DNA of 64,000 bases from Escherichia coli (GCF_013315695.1 NZ_CP054353.1), one strand, 5' to 3'; positions 14,768 to 41,093 are shown, counted from the stretch's first letter. Notes: generated by a model from the sequence alone, not told the origin. Numbers and translations are program-made.

Positions 14768-15209
14768 CTACCCCAGTGGTTTCGCCAGCACCGGACTATC
14801 CGCCGCTTGCTGGCGCTTATAGCGACCATACAGCAGCAACGACGACATCGCAGCAAACGAAAGCAGGGCGGCAGGCAGCGCCACGTAATTATATGCCATC
14901 CCCAGCGTCAGCATCATACCACCGCAATATGCGCCGACGGCGCTACCGAGGTTAAACGCTATTTGCCCACCTGCGGCACCTAATAACTCTCCGCCTTTTG
15001 CGTTTTGCAGTAACAATATTTGCAGAGGTGCTGAAAGGGCAAATAATCCCGCGCAACAAATAAAAGCAAAAATAAGCGACGTTATTTTCATGCCGCCGAA
15101 GAAAAAGAGCATCAACAGTGCCAGTACAATGATAAAGTCAGTCACTGCTGCAATGCGCAGTGGTGAATAACGTCCTGAAATCCGGCCACTTAGCACATTC
15201 CCCAGCACC
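14768..15209 (-). pseudogene. araJ: araJ, C-terminal portion (gene split by IS1)
   Basis: Encodes ...VLGNVLSGRISGRYSPLRIAAVTDF... to the AraJ C-terminus; the ORF reads into the IS1 end. Confidence 0.85.
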
Positions 15210-15264
15210 GGTGATGCTGCCAACTTACTGATTTAGTGTATGATGGTGTTTTTGAGGTGCTCCA

Positions 15265-15540
15265 GTGGCTTCTGTTTCTATCAGCTGTCCCTCCTGTTCA
15301 GCTACTGACGGGGTGGTGCGTAACGGCAAAAGCACCGCCGGACATCAGCGCTATCTCTGCTCTCACTGCCGTAAAACATGGCAACTGCAGTTCACTTACA
15401 CCGCTTCTCAACCCGGTACGCACCAGAAAATCATTGATATGGCCATGAATGGCGTTGGATGCCGGGCAACAGCCCGCATTATGGGCGTTGGCCTCAACAC
15501 GATTTTACGTCACTTAAAAAACTCAGGCCGCAGTCGGTAA
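15265..15540 (+). CDS. insA: IS1 InsA
   Basis: 91-aa [43 protein letters not shown]... Confidence 0.95.
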
Positions 15541-15962
15541 CCTCGCGCATACAGCCGGGCAGTGACGTCATCGTCTGCGCGGAAATGGACGAACAGTGGG
15601 GCTATGTCGGGGCTAAATCGCGCCAGCGCTGGCTGTTTTACGCGTATGACAGGCTCCGGAAGACGGTTGTTGCGCACGTATTCGGTGAACGCACTATGGC
15701 GACGCTGGGGCGTCTTATGAGCCTGCTGTCACCCTTTGACGTGGTGATATGGATGACGGATGGCTGGCCGCTGTATGAATCCCGCCTGAAGGGAAAGCTG
15801 CACGTAATCAGCAAGCGATATACGCAGCGAATTGAGCGGCATAACCTGAATCTGAGGCAGCACCTGGCACGGCTGGGACGGAAGTCGCTGTCGTTCTCAA
15901 AATCGGTGGAGCTGCATGACAAAGTCATCGGGCATTATCTGAACATAAAACACTATCAATAA
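15459..15962 (+). CDS. insB: IS1 InsB (expressed as InsAB' by -1 frameshift at the A6C motif)
   Basis: 167-aa ORF overlapping the insA 3' end; TTAAAAAAC slippery run at the overlap. Confidence 0.95.
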
Positions 15963-15977
15963 GTTGGAGTCATTACC

Positions 15978-16729
15978 CCCAGCACCATCCCTAGCCCCAC
16001 TAACATCATAATAAAGGTCATCGCCGTTTCCGAAAAACCGGAAATAAACATCATGTATGGCTTTACGTAGCTGAACCAGGCAAACACACCTGCGTTGCCA
16101 AACATCGTAGCGGCGAAAATTAACCACGGGGCAGGGCTGCGTAAAAAGTGAAATTGTTCGCGTAGTTTTCCTTTCGCCTCGTCGCGAATATCCGGCACCC
16201 AAAAATAGACCGATGCCATCACCGCAATATTAAAAACAGCGATCAACAAAAAGGTGTAGCGCCAGCTAAATTCCTGACTTAAATACGTTCCCAGTGGAAT
16301 GCCCAGCAAATTGGCGACTGTCATCCCGGAAACCATCCCTGCCACGGCGGCGGTGACTTTGCCGGGTTTGATAATTTTTGATAACACGATCGCTCCGACG
16401 CCAAAAAATGCGCCATGCGGAAAGCCGGATACCAGCCGACCAATGGCGAGCATCAGGTAAGACGAAGAGAGCGTGAACATGGCGTTGCCAATGACGCACA
16501 ACGCCACCAGAAACAATAAGATATGTTTGAGTGAGTAGCGACTGGAAAAAAGCGCGATGATTGGCGCACCGACCACCACCCCCAGCGCATAATACGAGAT
16601 CATATGCCCGGCGGCAGGAATCGAAATTCCTACGTTATGCGCCAGCTCCGTGAGCACGCCCATAATGCCAAATTCGGCCATCCCCAAACCAAACGTGCCC
16701 AGAGCCAAAGATAAAATGACTTTTTTCAT
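15978..16729 (-). pseudogene. araJ: araJ, N-terminal portion (gene split by IS1)
   Basis: Starts MKKVILSLALGTFGLGMAEFGIMGVL... (MFS transporter); with the C-terminal portion and minus the 9-bp duplication it reconstitutes 1185 bp (394 aa). Confidence 0.85.
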
Positions 16730-21304: not shown

Positions 21305-21346
21305 CTTTTCATAAATCTGTCATAAATCTGACGCATAATGACGTCG
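21305..21346 (+). promoter_or_regulatory. Pho boxes of the phoBR promoter
   Basis: TTTTCATAAATCTGTCATAAATCTGACGCATAATGACGTCGC, tandem CTGTCAT-like repeats about 50 bp upstream of phoB. Confidence 0.75.
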
Positions 21347-21386
21347 CATTAATGATCGCAACCTATTTATTACAACAGGGCAAATC

Positions 21387-22076
21387 ATGGCGAGACGTAT
21401 TCTGGTCGTAGAAGATGAAGCTCCAATTCGCGAAATGGTCTGCTTCGTGCTCGAACAAAATGGCTTTCAGCCGGTCGAAGCGGAAGATTATGACAGTGCT
21501 GTGAATCAACTGAATGAACCCTGGCCGGATTTAATTCTCCTTGACTGGATGTTACCTGGCGGCTCCGGTATCCAGTTCATCAAACACCTCAAGCGCGAGT
21601 CGATGACCCGGGATATTCCAGTGGTGATGTTGACCGCCAGAGGGGAAGAAGAAGATCGCGTGCGCGGCCTTGAAACCGGTGCGGATGACTATATCACCAA
21701 GCCGTTTTCGCCGAAGGAGCTGGTGGCGCGAATCAAAGCGGTAATGCGCCGTATTTCGCCGATGGCGGTGGAAGAGGTGATTGAGATGCAGGGGCTCAGT
21801 CTCGACCCGACATCTCACCGGGTGATGGCGGGCGAAGAACCGCTGGAGATGGGGCCGACAGAATTTAAACTGCTGCACTTTTTTATGACGCATCCTGAGC
21901 GCGTGTACAGCCGCGAGCAGCTGTTAAACCACGTCTGGGGAACCAACGTGTATGTGGAAGATCGTACAGTCGATGTCCACATTCGTCGCCTGCGTAAAGC
22001 ACTGGAGCCCGGCGGGCATGACCGCATGGTGCAGACCGTGCGCGGTACAGGATATCGTTTTTCAACCCGCTTTTAA
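21387..22076 (+). CDS. phoB: Phosphate regulon response regulator PhoB
   Basis: 229-aa [21 protein letters not shown]... Confidence 0.95.
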
Positions 22077-22133
22077 CGCCTTGCTCATCGGACGCAGAGC
22101 AGGGCTTATGAATTCTTAACTGGAGTATCTTAC

Positions 22134-23429
22134 GTGCTGGAGCGGCTGTCGTGGAAAAGGCTGGTGCTGGAGCTGCTACTTTGCTGCCTCCCGGCTTTCA
22201 TCCTGGGTGCATTTTTTGGTTACCTGCCCTGGTTTTTGCTGGCATCGGTAACGGGACTGCTTATCTGGCATTTCTGGAATTTATTGCGCCTTTCATGGTG
22301 GCTGTGGGTGGATCGTAGTATGACCCCGCCACCGGGGCGTGGTAGCTGGGAACCGCTGCTATACGGATTACACCAGATGCAGTTGCGAAATAAAAAACGC
22401 CGCCGCGAACTGGGCAATCTGATTAAACGCTTTCGTAGCGGCGCGGAGTCGCTGCCTGATGCGGTGGTGCTGACCACGGAAGAGGGCGGTATTTTCTGGT
22501 GTAATGGTCTGGCGCAACAAATTCTTGGTTTGCGCTGGCCGGAAGATAACGGGCAGAACATCCTTAATCTGCTTCGTTATCCGGAGTTTACGCAATATCT
22601 GAAAACGCGTGATTTTTCTCGCCCGCTCAATCTGGTGCTCAATACCGGGCGGCATCTGGAAATTCGCGTCATGCCTTATACCCACAAACAGTTGCTGATG
22701 GTGGCGCGTGATGTGACGCAAATGCATCAACTGGAAGGGGCGCGGCGTAACTTTTTTGCCAACGTGAGCCATGAGTTACGTACGCCATTGACCGTGTTAC
22801 AGGGTTACCTGGAGATGATGGATGAGCAACCGCTGGAAGGCGCGGTACGTGAAAAAGCGTTGCACACCATGCGCGAGCAGACACAGCGGATGGAAGGGCT
22901 GGTGAAGCAATTGCTGACGCTGTCGAAAATAGAAGCCGCACCGACGCAGTTGCTCAATGAAAAGGTTGATGTGCCGATGATGCTGCGCGTTGTTGAGCGC
23001 GAGGCTCAGACTCTGAGTCAGAAAAAACAGACATTTACCTTTGAGATAGATAACGGCCTCAAGGTGTCAGGCAACGAAGATCAGCTACGCAGTGCGATTT
23101 CGAACCTGGTCTATAACGCCGTGAATCATACGCCGGAAGGCACGCATATCACCGTACGCTGGCAGCGAGTGCCGCATGGTGCCGAATTTAGCGTTGAAGA
23201 TAACGGACCGGGCATTGCACCGGAGCATATTCCGCGCCTGACCGAGCGTTTTTATCGCGTTGATAAAGCGCGTTCCCGGCAAACCGGTGGTAGCGGATTA
23301 GGGTTAGCGATCGTGAAACATGCGGTGAATCATCACGAAAGTCGCCTGAATATTGAGAGTACAGTAGGAAAAGGTACACGTTTCAGTTTTGTTATCCCGG
23401 AACGTTTAATTGCCAAAAACAGCGATTAA
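22134..23429 (+). CDS. phoR: Phosphate regulon sensor histidine kinase PhoR
   Basis: 431-aa ORF with H-box ([11 protein letters not shown]) and ATPase domain. Confidence 0.95.
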
Positions 23430-28763: not shown

Positions 28764-30209
28764 ATGACAATTTCAAATTCGAATTTATTGAAACCGTTTA
28801 TTCCTGGTACTGAGTTGCCACCTTTTAAAGAGGATGTTTTTTCTAAAACAGAAGAACAATTTAAAAAAAGCCCCCATGGCAAATTGCTTTTCATTTCCGG
28901 AAATGAAAACTTAGTAAACATTTCAGCGGAAAAAATCGATGAAATAAAAAATAGCAAAGATTTCTTTTCAAATATTGTAAATATAATAATTTTAATCATT
29001 AAGCATCCTGATAAAATTCTGCCCATTCTTCATGGTTGTCCTGCAGAGTCCATCGAACTCATTAAGAATGCGAAACGAACGGGGCAATGGTCATATGAGA
29101 TGACTGATAAGAACGGGCAGAATATTGAAGTGTCCTATATTTTCACTGATACCATAGATGATAAATCTGATGGAAAATTATGCTTAAAAATCTGTAACTC
29201 TTGCAACCAAAATGATTCTAGTACACATGAATATAAAATAGATCATCAACAGTTGAAAAATCACATAAGGCAACTTGAGGAGTGGGCCCTTCTTGAAAAG
29301 TTTTATGATAACAACGCTTATTATTCTAAACGTACAAAACAATTAGAGAAGAAAATTGCCGATGCGGGGTTTATAACAGGGAAGGTTAATGCCGATAACT
29401 TTAATGTAAAAGAGTTTAAAGACGATATAGCCTCGATGCTTTGTGAACAGCCCCCCATGCGTACACACCAGATTTCTTCATCCGGATACTTATCTGCCGA
29501 TAAAGTGCCTGATCTCTATAAGACAAATTTGAAAGACGCGCAGAGAGATCTGAAAACAACACCGGTTGACATCGATGGTGTTAGTCTAAAATCAAAAACT
29601 CGGGAAAAAATTGCGGAAAAAATTGCGAAAAAAACTGAGGAAAAAATTGCGAAACAAAATGCGAAGACCATTGAGGAGAAGAATAGTGAAAAAAACAAGA
29701 AAGAAACAAATCCTGAGGATAATTTTGTCTTAAAATTCTCACCGGACGAAATCAATGAGATGCTCCTGGATTACAGCGATGAAGAACAAAAAAAATTAAG
29801 ACCTTTTTTCACTAGTGATCACATCTATTGTTTGTTTGATGCTTTTAGTCAGGGTTTGCATAATGTTGCTCGTAATGGCAGTCCACGGTATGCAGGTTTA
29901 CTACATCAAATAGCATCCAACTCTGAGATATTACAAGATTTTGATCAACAATTGTTCTGGCGCACGTTTTCAGGAGGAGTCTTCCATCGACGTATCTCTG
30001 TGAACAGCGAGCCAGAAAAGACAGATGTATGGCGATTCAGTACACAATTTGATTTTCCACATATAAATGACAACGGGGAGTTGTCCAGAACGGTACTCAT
30101 GTTCGAGGGGGTTGCTGAAAGCAACTTTAAAGATATCGCCAATCATTCCAGCGAATGTTTTTCTTACAGTTGTTATGCCGCTCCGCTGGATGCGAATGCT
30201 AAAAAATAG
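28764..30209 (+). CDS. Hypothetical 481-aa protein in an AT-rich islet; internal Lys/Glu-rich repeat; C-terminal region with a candidate papain-like (OTU-like) cysteine peptidase Cys motif
   Basis: Long uninterrupted ORF with GGAG 8 bp upstream of the ATG; visibly AT-rich codon usage unlike flanking genes; not part of the K-12 malZ-acpH junction as I recall it; motif SDHIYCLFDAFSQGL (Cys356) and downstream FPHIND (His433); function is inference only. Confidence 0.7.
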   Translation: MTISNSNLLKPFIPGTELPPFKEDVFSKTEEQFKKSPHGKLLFISGNENLVNISAEKIDEIKNSKDFFSNIVNIIILIIKHPDKILPILHGCPAESIELIKNAKRTGQWSYEMTDKNGQNIEVSYIFTDTIDDKSDGKLCLKICNSCNQNDSSTHEYKIDHQQLKNHIRQLEEWALLEKFYDNNAYYSKRTKQLEKKIADAGFITGKVNADNFNVKEFKDDIASMLCEQPPMRTHQISSSGYLSADKVPDLYKTNLKDAQRDLKTTPVDIDGVSLKSKTREKIAEKIAKKTEEKIAKQNAKTIEEKNSEKNKKETNPEDNFVLKFSPDEINEMLLDYSDEEQKKLRPFFTSDHIYCLFDAFSQGLHNVARNGSPRYAGLLHQIASNSEILQDFDQQLFWRTFSGGVFHRRISVNSEPEKTDVWRFSTQFDFPHINDNGELSRTVLMFEGVAESNFKDIANHSSECFSYSCYAAPLDANAKK

Positions 30210-36520: not shown

Positions 36521-36763
36521 ATGCGCAAAATTACCTCAGTAAGCGTTGGCGAACAATTAGATAGTTTTATTACCCGGATGGTCCAGTCTGGTCGTTATGG
36601 CTCGGCCAGTGAAGTGATGCGTTCAGCGCTTCGTCTATTGGAACAACAAGAATCCCGGGATGAAGCTGTCAGAAATGCAGTTATTGAAGGTCTTGAGAGC
36701 GGTGAAAGTTCGATGACGCTTCGTGATATCGCAGCAGAAAGGAAGCAAAAACATCGTGTATAA
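36521..36763 (+). CDS. ParD-like (RHH/CopG family) type II antitoxin
   Basis: 80-aa protein MRKITSVSVGEQLDSFITRMVQSGRYGSASEVMRSALRLLEQQE...; RBS GGAG upstream; ORF track start at 36401 would run through the secF terminator. Confidence 0.75.
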   Translation: MRKITSVSVGEQLDSFITRMVQSGRYGSASEVMRSALRLLEQQESRDEAVRNAVIEGLESGESSMTLRDIAAERKQKHRV

Positions 36764-37037
36764 GCTTAGCGGAAAAGCTGTTGAAGATTTCAGAGGGATC
36801 TATGACTACACGCTGGGAAAGTTTGGTGAGGAGCAGGCGGATCGCTATACCGACTCTCTCGGCATTTTTTTGGATACACTCTCTCAAATGCCCGAGATTG
36901 GTCAAGACTATGATGCGATTCCAGAGGTAAAGAAGATCGCATTTAGGTTTCACACTGTTTATTACGTTATAAGAGTCGATGACATTCTCATTGCGCGCAT
37001 TCTTCATCAGCTGATGGAACCTCGCCGTCACTGGTAA
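36753..37037 (+). CDS. ParE/RelE-superfamily type II toxin
   Basis: About 94 aa from GTG 36753 ((M)YKLSGKAVEDFRGIYDYTL...FHTVYYVIRVDDILIARILHQLMEP); overlaps the antitoxin stop; start codon uncertain (36723 or 36753). Confidence 0.7.
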   Translation: MVYKLSGKAVEDFRGIYDYTLGKFGEEQADRYTDSLGIFLDTLSQMPEIGQDYDAIPEVKKIAFRFHTVYYVIRVDDILIARILHQLMEPRRHW

Positions 37038-38692: not shown

Positions 38693-39103
38693 TTACTGCA
38701 TAACAGGTTGAATGTCGTGGATACGTACAAAGTCTAACTGTTCTACAGAAATCCCCTTTAACTGTAACGGAATATCAACATCGCTGGGGACGAGGACGCT
38801 GGCAGGGGCATTAATCAATTGATTCTGCAAATTGATTTCCTGAAAGTTGTCTATTGTTCCCTGAATTTGCCCATATTCAACAGTTCCGCTGAATGCGGGC
38901 AAGGGGTCATTCGACTCGCCCTGAATACGTAGCGTCAGGGTGGTGCCATCTGTATCATGCGTAATATTCACTAGCGACATACGTAAAGTACCGATCTGGC
39001 TTTCCAGTCTTGCCGGTGTTTTCGCTCCAGGCAGAAGGTAAACCCCACTGCTGGATTTTGCATTCAGCCTGTTTTGCTGAGTGATTTTGACGGTTTCTTT
39101 ATC
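38693..39103 (-). pseudogene. yajI: yajI lipoprotein gene, C-terminal portion (split by IS200/IS605-family insertion)
   Basis: Frame encodes ...DKETVKITQQNRLNAKSSSGVYLLPGAKTPARLESQIGTLRMSLVNITHDTDG...VMQ; boundary placed so that both parts sum to 179 aa, the YajI length as I remember it. Confidence 0.7.
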
Positions 39104-39582
39104 CGGTGCGCCGTAAAACCCCGTCCTTCAGGGCGGGGATATAAGGCGCGGTTTTCCACCTGACCAGGTGTTTGCTGTTGTTCAATGTATTGGCGGATGA
39201 CGGATATTGGCGCACCTCCGCAGCTACTGGCAAAATAGCCAGGACTCCACAAAACGCCTTTGTAGTAATACCTGACTGCAATATCTGGTCGATCTCGTCG
39301 CAGTCACCTACCCGATACGCCTTTGAGGCTGTTTACCAGACTGGATATCGCCAGTTTGGGAGGATAGTTAATTAACAAATGGACGTGATCTGGTTCGCCA
39401 TCCATTTCAACCAGTTCAGCTTCAAAATCAGCACATACATTTGAATAGTAAGTGCGTAGTTTTTCTGTCGCGTCATGGTCAAAAATCTGGCGTCGGTATT
39501 TGGGACAAAGACCAGGTGAACATGCATCAGGAAAACACAATGCCTTCCACGCCGGATATCGGTTTCTTTTTTCACAGACCAA
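39064..39582 (-). pseudogene. tnpA: IS200-type tnpA (HuH transposase), apparently frameshifted
   Basis: N-terminal ORF 39304..39582 has CPKYRRQIF and the HuH motif DHVHLLINYPP, then stops; the C-terminal part (WSPGYFASSCGGAPISVIRQYIEQQ) continues in another frame (39064..39252). Confidence 0.6.
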
Positions 39583-40850
39583 AGTATCATTTGACCTGTG
39601 AAACGATTACAGGCATTTAAATTCCAGTTAAGACCAGGTGGTCAACAGGAGTGTGAAATGAGGCGCTTCGCAGGCGCATGTCGTTTCGTTTTCAATCGTG
39701 CTCTGGCGCTTCAGAATGAGAATCATGAGGCCGGTAATAAATACATCCCTTACGGGAAAATGGCTTCCTGGCTGGTTGAGTGGAAAAACGCCACTGAAAT
39801 GCAATGGCTTAAAGATTCGCCCTCACAGCCATTGCAACAGTCACTGAAAGACCTTGAGCGGGCTTACAAAAACTTCTTCCAGAAGCGGGCTGCTTTTCCC
39901 CGATTCAAAAAGCGGGGACAGAATGATGCATTCCGCTACCCGCAGGGCGTTAAGCTCGATCAGGAAAACAGCCGTATTTTTCTGCCGAAACTTGGCTGGA
40001 TGCGCTACCGGAACAGCCGTCAGGTCACGGGTGTTGTGAAAAATGTCACTGTCAGCCAGTCCTGCGGTAAGTGGTACATCAGTATTCAGACAGAAAGTGA
40101 AGTATCCACTCCGGTTCACCCTTCAGCATCAATGGTCGGGCTGGATGCTGGCGTGGCTAAACTCGCCACGCTGTCAGATGGCACAGTCTTTGAGCCTGTA
40201 AACAGTTTTCAGAAAAACCAGAAGACGCTGGCGAGACTTCAGCGACAGTTAAGCCGCAAGGTCGAATTCAGCAATAACTGGCAGAAGCAGAAACGCAAAA
40301 TACAGCGACTGCATTCCCGTATCGCAAATATCCGCAGGGACTACCTTCACAAAGTCACAACGACCGTCAGCAAAAACCACGCAATGATAGTCATTGAGGA
40401 TTTGAAGGTCAGCAACATGTCAAAGTCAGCAGCGGGTACGGTCAGCCAGCCGGGGCGCAATGTCCGGGCAAAATCAGGTTTAAACCGTTCGATACTGGAT
40501 CAGGGCTGGTATGAAATGCGCCGCCAGCTTGAGTACAAGCAGCTCTGGCGTGGCGGTCAGGTGCTTGCTGTTCCGCCAGCGTACACAAGCCAGCGTTGCG
40601 CGTGCTGTGGTCATACAGCGAAAGAAAATCGCCTGTCACAAAGTAAATTCAGATGCCAGGCATGTGGATATACAGCGAACGCTGATGTAAATGGCGCTCG
40701 TAACATTTTAGCGGCGGGGCACGCCGTTCTTGCCTGTGGAGGGATGGTGCAGTCAGGCCGCCCGTTGAAGCAGGAACCCACCGAAATGATTCAGGCGACA
40801 GCCTGAACGTAGCAGGGATCCACGTCCTTCAGGGCGTGGAGGATGTCAAT
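39104..40850 (+). mobile_element. IS200/IS605-family insertion sequence (IS609-like), about 1.75 kb
   Basis: Divergent tnpA (HuH Y1 transposase, degraded) and tnpB; near-identical subterminal imperfect hairpins at both ends; interrupts yajI; no terminal inverted repeats, as expected for this family; boundaries inferred. Confidence 0.75.
39598..40806 (+). CDS. tnpB: TnpB (IS605 OrfB family RNA-guided endonuclease; InsQ-like)
   Basis: 402-aa [20 protein letters not shown]... with RuvC-like motifs ([24 protein letters not shown]) and CxxC...CxxC zinc finger. Confidence 0.9.
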
Positions 40851-40979
40851 GAGTTGCGTCATCTCCTGGTTCAGTGTGCTGACGCTGTGTTTCATCTGCC
40901 GCACTTCGCTTTGCTGCACACAGGCGCTAAGGCTGAACAGGCTTCCCAGCAGGAGCAGTCGAAAAACGTTAGTATTCAT
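40851..40979 (-). pseudogene. yajI: yajI lipoprotein gene, N-terminal portion
   Basis: MNTNVFRLLLLGSLFSLSACVQQSEVRQMKHSVSTLNQEMTQL (lipoprotein signal peptide with lipobox LSAC), then the frame runs into the IS right end. Confidence 0.7.
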
Positions 40980-41093
40980 AGGTCGTCCCTTTCTCGTCGC
41001 AATTAGCCTAATGGTAGAGGGTAAAAGCAGTGAAAGCATCGATCCTTTATCTCAAAAGCGTTGCGCCTTTGTTGTATCGTCAGTTCAGGGTAA

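Follow-up and report, generated by a model that had tools for sequence, protein, structure and literature searches.

IS609 inserted in yajI of Escherichia coli: a non-autonomous copy with a degenerate tnpA and an intact tnpB predicted to encode an RNA-guided endonuclease

The window, a stretch of 64,000 nucleotides of Escherichia coli chromosome, extends from sbmA to past thiI and shows the lipoprotein gene yajI, located on the minus strand between tsx and nrdR, interrupted by an insertion sequence of the IS200/IS605 family (Table 1). This element shows 98.3% identity to the IS609/insQ copy found between ydcL and ydcO in the K-12 strain, with 30 substitutions and one single-base indel, and on its sequence it is IS609, a catalogued insertion sequence of E. 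coli. It contains a tnpA pseudogene, an intact tnpB gene and, overlapping the 3' end of tnpB and the right end of the element, a predicted guide-RNA (omega RNA) scaffold.

Table 1. Features of the IS609 copy and of the interrupted yajI gene; positions are counted from the first nucleotide of the window.
Feature	Position	Strand	Remarks
yajI 3' fragment	38693..39102	-	Codons 44-179 and stop; alignment to ETEC4075 yajI
TTTAT target/transposon-adjacent motif (TAM)	39098..39102	+	Directly 5' of the left end
IS609 copy, IS200/IS605 family	39103..40849	+	No target-site duplication; limits from the intact allele and from the match limits of copies elsewhere
tnpA pseudogene, Y1 HUH transposase	39103..39590	-	ATG at 39590-39588; reads through the left end
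Left-end subterminal hairpin CCCCGTCCTTCAGGGCGGGG	39119..39138	+	16 nt inside the left end; conserved in relatives
tnpB/insQ, RNA-guided endonuclease gene (predicted)	39598..40806	+	GTG start; uninterrupted ORF, 402 aa
Predicted guide-RNA (omega RNA) scaffold	40680..40849	+	RNAalifold, 28 relatives
Scaffold helices (predicted)	40680-40696; 40711-40727; 40733-40737/40770-40774; 40741-40748/40757-40763; 40802-40804/40814-40816; 40819-40828/40831-40840		
Scaffold long-range pairing (predicted)	40703-40708/40841-40846		
Right-end subterminal hairpin CCACGTCCTTCAGGGCGTGG	40820..40839	+	Stops 10 nt short of the right end; compensatory changes in relatives
Right-end terminus GGAGGATGTCAA	40838..40849	+	Final TCAA is the cleavage-site tetranucleotide; once in the window
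Predicted 16-nt guide segment TGAGTTGCGTCATCTC	40850..40865	+	yajI antisense; first base after the element per intact-allele alignment
yajI 5' fragment	40850..40979	-	Start codon, signal peptide and lipobox; codons 1-43 and 1 nt

The uninterrupted yajI of strain ETEC4075 (locus L003) aligns to the window in two blocks, 38901..39102 and 40850..41049. The junction in this intact allele is GTTTCTTTAT/TGAGTTGCGTC, and the sequence of the empty site is ...TTTAT/TGAGTTGCG... Since the blocks stop at 39102 and resume at 40850, the insert has 1747 bp, and the comparison of the intact TTTAT/TGAG with the occupied site shows that zero target bases were duplicated. An initial annotation made from the window alone had recognised an IS200/IS605 family element splitting yajI, which the alignment to the intact ETEC4075 allele bears out, and had proposed a comparison with intact alleles for the exact insertion point: yajI is indeed the target, but the insertion point shifts by one base, given that the 39104..40850 insert of that annotation has both ends one base too far to the right. 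Rejoined at 39102/40850, the two yajI halves form 540 nt, 179 codons and a stop, with Asn44 as in the intact allele, and the rejoined product is identical to the ETEC4075 allele at 174 of 180 positions, the stop counted. The sum of 179 amino acids on which the previous limits relied is correct, but the sum does not fix the junction, since 39104..40850 also leaves 540 nt, with Asp44 at this position. The ends match those of other IS609 copies, no intact yajI allele with a different junction was seen, and yajI stays as the target. The gene is inactivated by the insertion inside codon 44. In other genomes PGAP labels the equivalent 3' piece as a SadB/YajI or DUF3251 pseudogene and the 5' piece as a DUF3251 pseudogene.

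Three independent E. coli loci, yajI, ydcL/ydcO and gltX/yfeD, show TTTAT adjacent to the left end of IS609, and the copies at these loci have the ...GTCAA terminus in common; relatives from other genera show TTAT or TTAC at the left flank. The right-end terminus is invariant in 28 of 28 aligned relatives from other Enterobacterales and the flanks beyond it are completely unrelated, so the right end at 40849 is fixed independently of the yajI alignment. The element shows subterminal palindromes instead of terminal inverted repeats: the two 20-nt end hairpins are direct repeats on one strand (repeat family D1), 90% identical, and they are kept in relatives with compensatory changes. In addition, at 13 of the 15 loci readable for both features, the last base of the TAM changes in step with the base adjoining the left-end hairpin on its 5' side, TTAT occurring with TAAAA and TTAC with TAAAG; the exceptions are loci L013 and L030. 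This pattern would be expected if the left end reads the target by base-pairing, which is established behaviour in IS608 of Helicobacter pylori. IS608 shares with the window element the subterminal hairpins, the TTAC/TTAT insertion without duplication, the TCAA end and a target choice that varies with a base 5' of the left-end hairpin. The tnpA and tnpB genes of IS608 are co-directional, whereas those of the window element are divergent as in IS605.

The tnpA pseudogene shows three lesions. In codon 30, one nucleotide is deleted between 39503 and 39504; in codon 96, which is a Leu codon in intact relatives, there is an in-frame TGA (39304-39306); and the native stop, which in intact relatives follows ...QQQTPG, is lost, so that the frame leaves the element unterminated at the left end. 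Once repaired, the translation reaches 146 bits with the NCBIfam model transpos_IS200 (cut-off 55), and its HVH motif and the Tyr of RQYIEQQ align with those of intact relatives. TnpA had been described as broken into at least two frames, a description that stands and to which the premature stop and the lost native stop are now added. The deletion and the TGA are also present in the complete assemblies of AF3, 2016C-3878, ECCNB12-2 and IAI39 and in the gltX/yfeD copy of MS 21-1, and PGAP flags tnpA in such assemblies as 'frameshifted; internal stop'. Because both lesions recur in independent complete assemblies, the case of an intact TnpA obscured by a sequencing frameshift, which the initial annotation had named as its own refutation, is excluded. 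Uninterrupted IS609 tnpA genes are found in other E. coli, such as the 204-aa gene of P0014, located beside a shortened tnpB between ytfB and yjfZ. The term immobilised, applied previously to the window element, is too strong: since both ends are intact (end hairpins, TTTAT and TCAA site), the copy is non-autonomous, and TnpA supplied in trans could move it.

The product of tnpB scores 391 bits against the NCBIfam model guided_TnpB, shows the Pfam domains HTH_OrfB_IS605, OrfB_IS605 and Cas12f1-like_TNB (E 2.7e-24), and aligns over its full length to ISDra2 TnpB (8bf8/8exa; E 1e-53). In this alignment, the RuvC residues D183, E267 and D363 correspond to D191, E278 and D361 of ISDra2, and the zinc ribbon CxxC...CxxC is made of C334/C337 and C353/C356. 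The earlier reading of a 402-aa TnpB with RuvC motifs and a zinc finger thus holds on the ORF, on Pfam and on the ISDra2 alignment. ISDra2 TnpB (8bf8, 8exa and 8h1j) has the RuvC D/E/D and the zinc finger in common with the window TnpB, which differs by a clearly divergent sequence and a 15-residue insertion after the RuvC glutamate; the TAM of ISDra2 is TTGAT, versus TTTAT in the window. The exact protein is on record as WP_174183207.1/QKM90123.1, 'RNA-guided endonuclease InsQ/TnpB family protein [Escherichia coli]', and is a singleton. Two of its substitutions are private, M68 and A355, and A355 falls between C353 and C356 of the zinc finger.

The 402-aa ORF is kept in the eight IS609 copies compared (8/8). 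Between diverged tnpB copies, pN/pS ranges from 0.2 to 0.6 and is below 1 in every informative pair, on small counts, which suggests some constraint on tnpB. Selection specifically on tnpB is not demonstrated by these values, because the counts are small and variability is no higher in the tnpA region (11 variable sites in 495 bp) than in tnpB (44 in 1209 bp). An argument that tnpB diverged under selection after the death of tnpA, built on the TGA common to the yajI, yfeD and ydcO copies, was considered unsafe and dropped, because sequence exchange between the copies is visible and the tnpA region shows no excess of variable sites over tnpB. Upstream of the gene, a -10-like box located 7 nt before the start reads TATCAT in the window versus TATAAT in most relatives, and the start codon is GTG versus ATG in relatives; the weakened box and the GTG start may imply low tnpB expression. 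A consensus promoter scan of the plus strand found no good sigma-70 consensus for tnpB or for the guide RNA. A literature search found nothing specific on E. coli insQ/ydcM as a nuclease; IS609 TnpB is among the nine orthologs purified in a diagnostics screen, and the available part of that source contains no IS609-specific result.

The last 200 nt of the element were aligned in 28 relatives, and the consensus fold obtained with RNAalifold shows 41 pairs in seven helices, nine of these pairs with compensatory changes. In this fold 97.8% of the cells are paired, versus 43-53% when the partners are slid by one to three columns, and 0 of 500 shuffles reached the observed covariation score. The helices are intact in the window copy. 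Those at 40711-40727 and 40741-40763 lie in the coding region of tnpB and covary, a pattern that protein coding by itself would hardly produce. Covariation in 28 relatives thus supports a putative guide-RNA scaffold over the tnpB 3' end. The scaffold of the ISDra2 omega RNA occupies the corresponding region, the 3' end of tnpB and the right end, and likewise has a long-range helix that involves the bases immediately preceding the guide. The terminal hairpin covaries too, and as it doubles as a DNA hairpin recognised by TnpA, it does not discriminate between the two roles. Rfam models, searched at the locus with a permissive E-value, gave only sub-threshold matches at the tnpB 3' end: HgcC (23.8 bits, cut-off 50), sot0042 (17.5, cut-off 88) and RAGATH-18 (28.1, cut-off 44.9). 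Nothing reached the gathering thresholds over the entire window. A curated Rfam match is not a defining feature of TnpB systems.

The predicted guide begins at the first base after the element. Its origin in the yajI flank at the right end, which the initial annotation had predicted, is as expected by the rule of the family, but its start is 40850 and not 40851; its length of 16 nt is taken by analogy from the ISDra2 and Gst TnpB and is provisional. The guide segment matches the window exactly only at its own site, and no other site in the window matches it with fewer than three mismatches, so nothing in the window points to a host-gene target or to self-targeting. Immunity of the occupied locus to its own guide is expected, because ...GTCAA, and not TTTAT, precedes the flank that matches it.

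The IS609 of K-12, whose insQ (b1432) is located beside a tnpA pseudogene, shows the same divergent tnpA/tnpB layout as the window element, the TTTAT flank, the hairpins, the ...GGATGTCAA end and an intact 402-aa insQ. It differs in the insertion site, in 11 amino acids of TnpB and, owing to its different right flank, in the predicted guide, and its tnpA shows the TGA at codon 96 and likewise lacks the native stop, with the 1-nt deletion absent. The published listing for MG1655 gives the K-12 element as a single-copy IS609 of the IS200/IS605 family, and mutation-accumulation lines showed zero new insertions of it (PMC5009759), a quiescence consistent with a dead tnpA. The yajI::IS609 copies of IAI39, 2016C-3878 and AF3 (TnpB WP_000826423.1) share with the window the insertion point and both the deletion and the TGA of tnpA; the yajI copies of other strains differ from that of the window at 15-19 positions, with seven amino-acid changes in TnpB.

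Among 5426 complete E. coli genomes, 4858 contain at least 80% of an IS609 copy, 3265 show the ydcO junction, and 340, including IAI39 and several unrelated-looking isolates, show the yajI right junction; IS609 occupies roughly 11,000 places in these genomes in all. In hundreds of genomes, the PGAP annotation of the yajI::IS609 locus consists of four features: yajI in two fragments, a pseudogene for tnpA and an intact InsQ/TnpB gene. The configuration of a dead tnpA and an intact tnpB, pointed out previously at this locus, is present but not peculiar to yajI, as K-12 insQ and most E. coli IS609 copies are alike. The yajI::IS609 arrangement is already known: it is the usual IS609 state in E. 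coli, publicly annotated at the same site.

The window and isolate AF3 are collinear base for base over the 50 kb compared, with 23 mismatches: 15 are inside the element and eight are in the 48 kb of flanks. At 11 of the 15 element differences the window has the nucleotide found in a sister strain's gltX/yfeD copy, at one it has that of the K-12 ydcO and 2012C-4221 yajI copies, and three are private. Alleles of the yajI type are kept at positions interleaved with those of the gltX/yfeD type. No element identical to that of the window was found among the 5426 complete genomes, the best match being 99.1%. The sequence pattern of patchwork alleles suggests gene conversion between IS609 copies as the simplest explanation. 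Whether conversion or a chimeric assembly caused the patchwork, the other conclusions are unaffected.

The locus very probably contains a non-autonomous IS609 copy in yajI, with a dead tnpA, intact ends and an intact tnpB whose product is predicted to be RuvC-competent and to use a guide derived from the flank. The evidence observed for this reading comprises the identity and boundaries of the element, the tnpA lesions, the catalytic residues of TnpB, the covariation of the scaffold and the frequency in the population. In the published model, excision by TnpA leaves no scar, the resulting donor joint, made of the TAM and the flank, is cut by TnpB with its guide, and recombination with a sister copy then restores the element (Meers et al., bioRxiv 10.1101/2023.03.14.532601). 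Applied to this locus, IS609 would have entered codon 44 of yajI, 3' of TTTAT, by single-strand 'peel and paste' transposition. If expressed, TnpB would associate with a guide RNA that is transcribed across the 3' end of tnpB and the right end and has TGAGTTGCGTCATCTC as its tail, and the complex would cut the empty site, TTTAT plus TGAGTTGCGTCATCTC, which is the intact yajI allele; recombination after the cut would restore the element. In the present state, with the resident tnpA dead, the cell forms no donor joint and has no empty site, so TnpB is predicted to be idle. A target would become available only through TnpA acting in trans or through the arrival of an intact yajI allele by gene transfer. 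A nearby tnpA is lacking for about 75% of tnpB genes (Meers et al., bioRxiv 10.1101/2023.03.14.532601).

It is possible, though rather doubtful, that the module formed by tnpB and the guide RNA is a relic, silent or no longer active, with an ORF intact through the short time elapsed or through refreshing by gene conversion. The patchwork alleles, with 15 of the 23 AF3 differences inside the element, indicate that conversion could keep ORFs without selection, and pN/pS values of up to 0.6 in some pairs, the weak -10 box, the GTG start, the lack of a promoter consensus in the scan and the private M68 and A355 point in the same direction, as does the plasmid interference assay in which the TnpB of H. 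pylori IS608, with a similar TTAC motif, showed no activity (Meers et al., bioRxiv 10.1101/2023.03.14.532601). However, all the catalytic and zinc-binding residues are retained, the scaffold helices are intact in the window, pN/pS stays below 1 in every informative pair, and the eight copies compared keep the 402-aa ORF while tnpA gained two or three lesions, which speaks against a relic. An assembly or sequencing artefact behind the tnpA damage or the odd allele pattern is unlikely. The exact TnpB is a singleton, the element has no identical counterpart among the 5426 genomes and a collapsed multi-copy repeat could yield a chimeric consensus; against this, the deletion and the TGA are found in at least five independent assemblies and in one copy located elsewhere, which establishes tnpA as a real pseudogene, and chimerism would bear on about 15 substitutions and on none of the conclusions. 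Domestication of TnpB, as a regulator directed by the guide RNA or through read-through from tnpB into the nrdR-ribD operon, is very improbable: the plus strand carries tnpB, the right end and also nrdR/ribD, with about 280 bp from the right end to the nrdR start, and in most E. coli IS609 copies tnpB has survived longer than tnpA, but the RuvC triad is intact, in contrast to exapted TnpBs of the nuclease-dead TldR type, the guide has no match in the window besides its own flank, and an insertion present in just 340 of 5426 genomes, with the other IS609 sites polymorphic too, does not indicate a fixed host function, while a terminator and promoter scan gave no evidence either way on read-through into nrdR-ribD.

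On the preferred reading of a non-autonomous IS609 with a predicted competent TnpB, the element might also act at the population level, as a homing or guard element that needs no TnpA of its own, although the probability of this role is low. As a guard, the resident TnpB and guide would cut an incoming intact yajI (TTTAT plus TGAGTTGCGTCATCTC) arriving by conjugation or transduction. In homing, an occupied allele entering a naive cell would cut the intact site of the recipient, and recombination would install or keep the insertion. Such a role, if true, would explain why tnpB ORFs outlive tnpA across the E. coli IS609 copies, and also the near-identical element and about 4 kb of flank found in the distant strains IAI39 and 2016C-3878. 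Sliding comparison of these two strains shows a divergence of 0-2 per kb at 37-41 kb versus 12-26 per kb just outside. A drive signature around the element was considered and rejected as not specific, since a 32-kb comparison of four strains shows comparable low-divergence patches elsewhere, and ordinary recombination explains the divergence pattern equally well. Beyond correct annotation the locus is of little consequence, and the practical value of the analysis lies in a precise description of it: the insert, the TAM, the predicted guide start, the three tnpA lesions and the break of yajI in codon 44. The locus would also offer a natural test case for the homing of orphan TnpBs in their native host, with about 6% of the sequenced E. 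coli occupied and the rest showing a perfect TAM and target as an empty site.

Over the 50 kb compared, the window differs from the near-clonal E. coli isolate AF3 at 23 positions, 15 of which lie inside the 1747-bp IS609 copy. The differing sites in this copy span 39319-40683 of the window, in comparison with the loci L006/L001 and L007. The majority of the window variant sites carry the alleles of the IS609 copy located at gltX/yfeD in a sister strain, and these are interspersed with yajI-type alleles. This patchwork suggests gene conversion among IS609 copies, or possibly a chimeric assembly of the repeat.

The divergent tnpA and tnpB start codons are separated by only 7 bp in the window, and a 14-nt inverted repeat spans both of them (Table). 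The tnpB of the relatives starts with ATG and shows a TATAAT 7 nt upstream, an arrangement that looks leaderless, whereas the window tnpB starts with GTG and shows TATCAT instead of TATAAT. In tnpA, other E. coli IS609 copies (protein ORFs P0001, P0010 and P0014) have a Leu codon at the position of the premature stop and an uninterrupted ORF. TGA followed by C is a leaky stop context in E. coli, but in tnpA of the window copy any low-level read-through would be blocked anyway by the frameshift upstream. The IS609 copy of locus L070 (E. coli GCA_020085235.1) shows the reverse state to that of the window: tnpA is an uninterrupted 204-aa ORF, which runs through the left end, and beside it the tnpB call is shortened to 348 aa.

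Features of the window and of the comparison loci
Feature	Coordinates	Location or detail
tnpA premature stop TGA, next base C	window 39304-39306	minus strand
Inverted repeat, 14 nt, TTTCACAGACCAAA / TTTGACCTGTGAAA	window 39570-39603	spans both start codons of tnpA and tnpB
IS609 copy	L070 1796-3615	between ytfB/fklB and yjfZ/rplI
parD/parE-type toxin-antitoxin pair	window 36521-37037	between secF and yajD
IS1A copy splitting araJ (MFS transporter gene)	window ~14768-16729	transposase ~15265-15962
481-aa ORF, sole annotation hypothetical protein	window 28764-30209	between malZ and acpH
Frameshifted pentapeptide-repeat gene	L012 (strain 2012C-4221) ~21308-22881	between pgpA and yajO

The parD/parE-type pair was found in AF3, IAI39 and 2016C-3878, and is not annotated in strain 2012C-4221; it is therefore an accessory islet near the IS609 site. 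The additional pentapeptide-repeat gene of 2012C-4221 is absent from the corresponding site of the window (~45250) and appears as a gap of ~2 kb in the flank comparison. The hypothetical ORF between malZ and acpH differs in length among strains (1446 nt versus 1458 nt in 2012C-4221). The placement of the IS1A copy in araJ is inferred from AF3, whose annotated sequence is collinear with that of the window.
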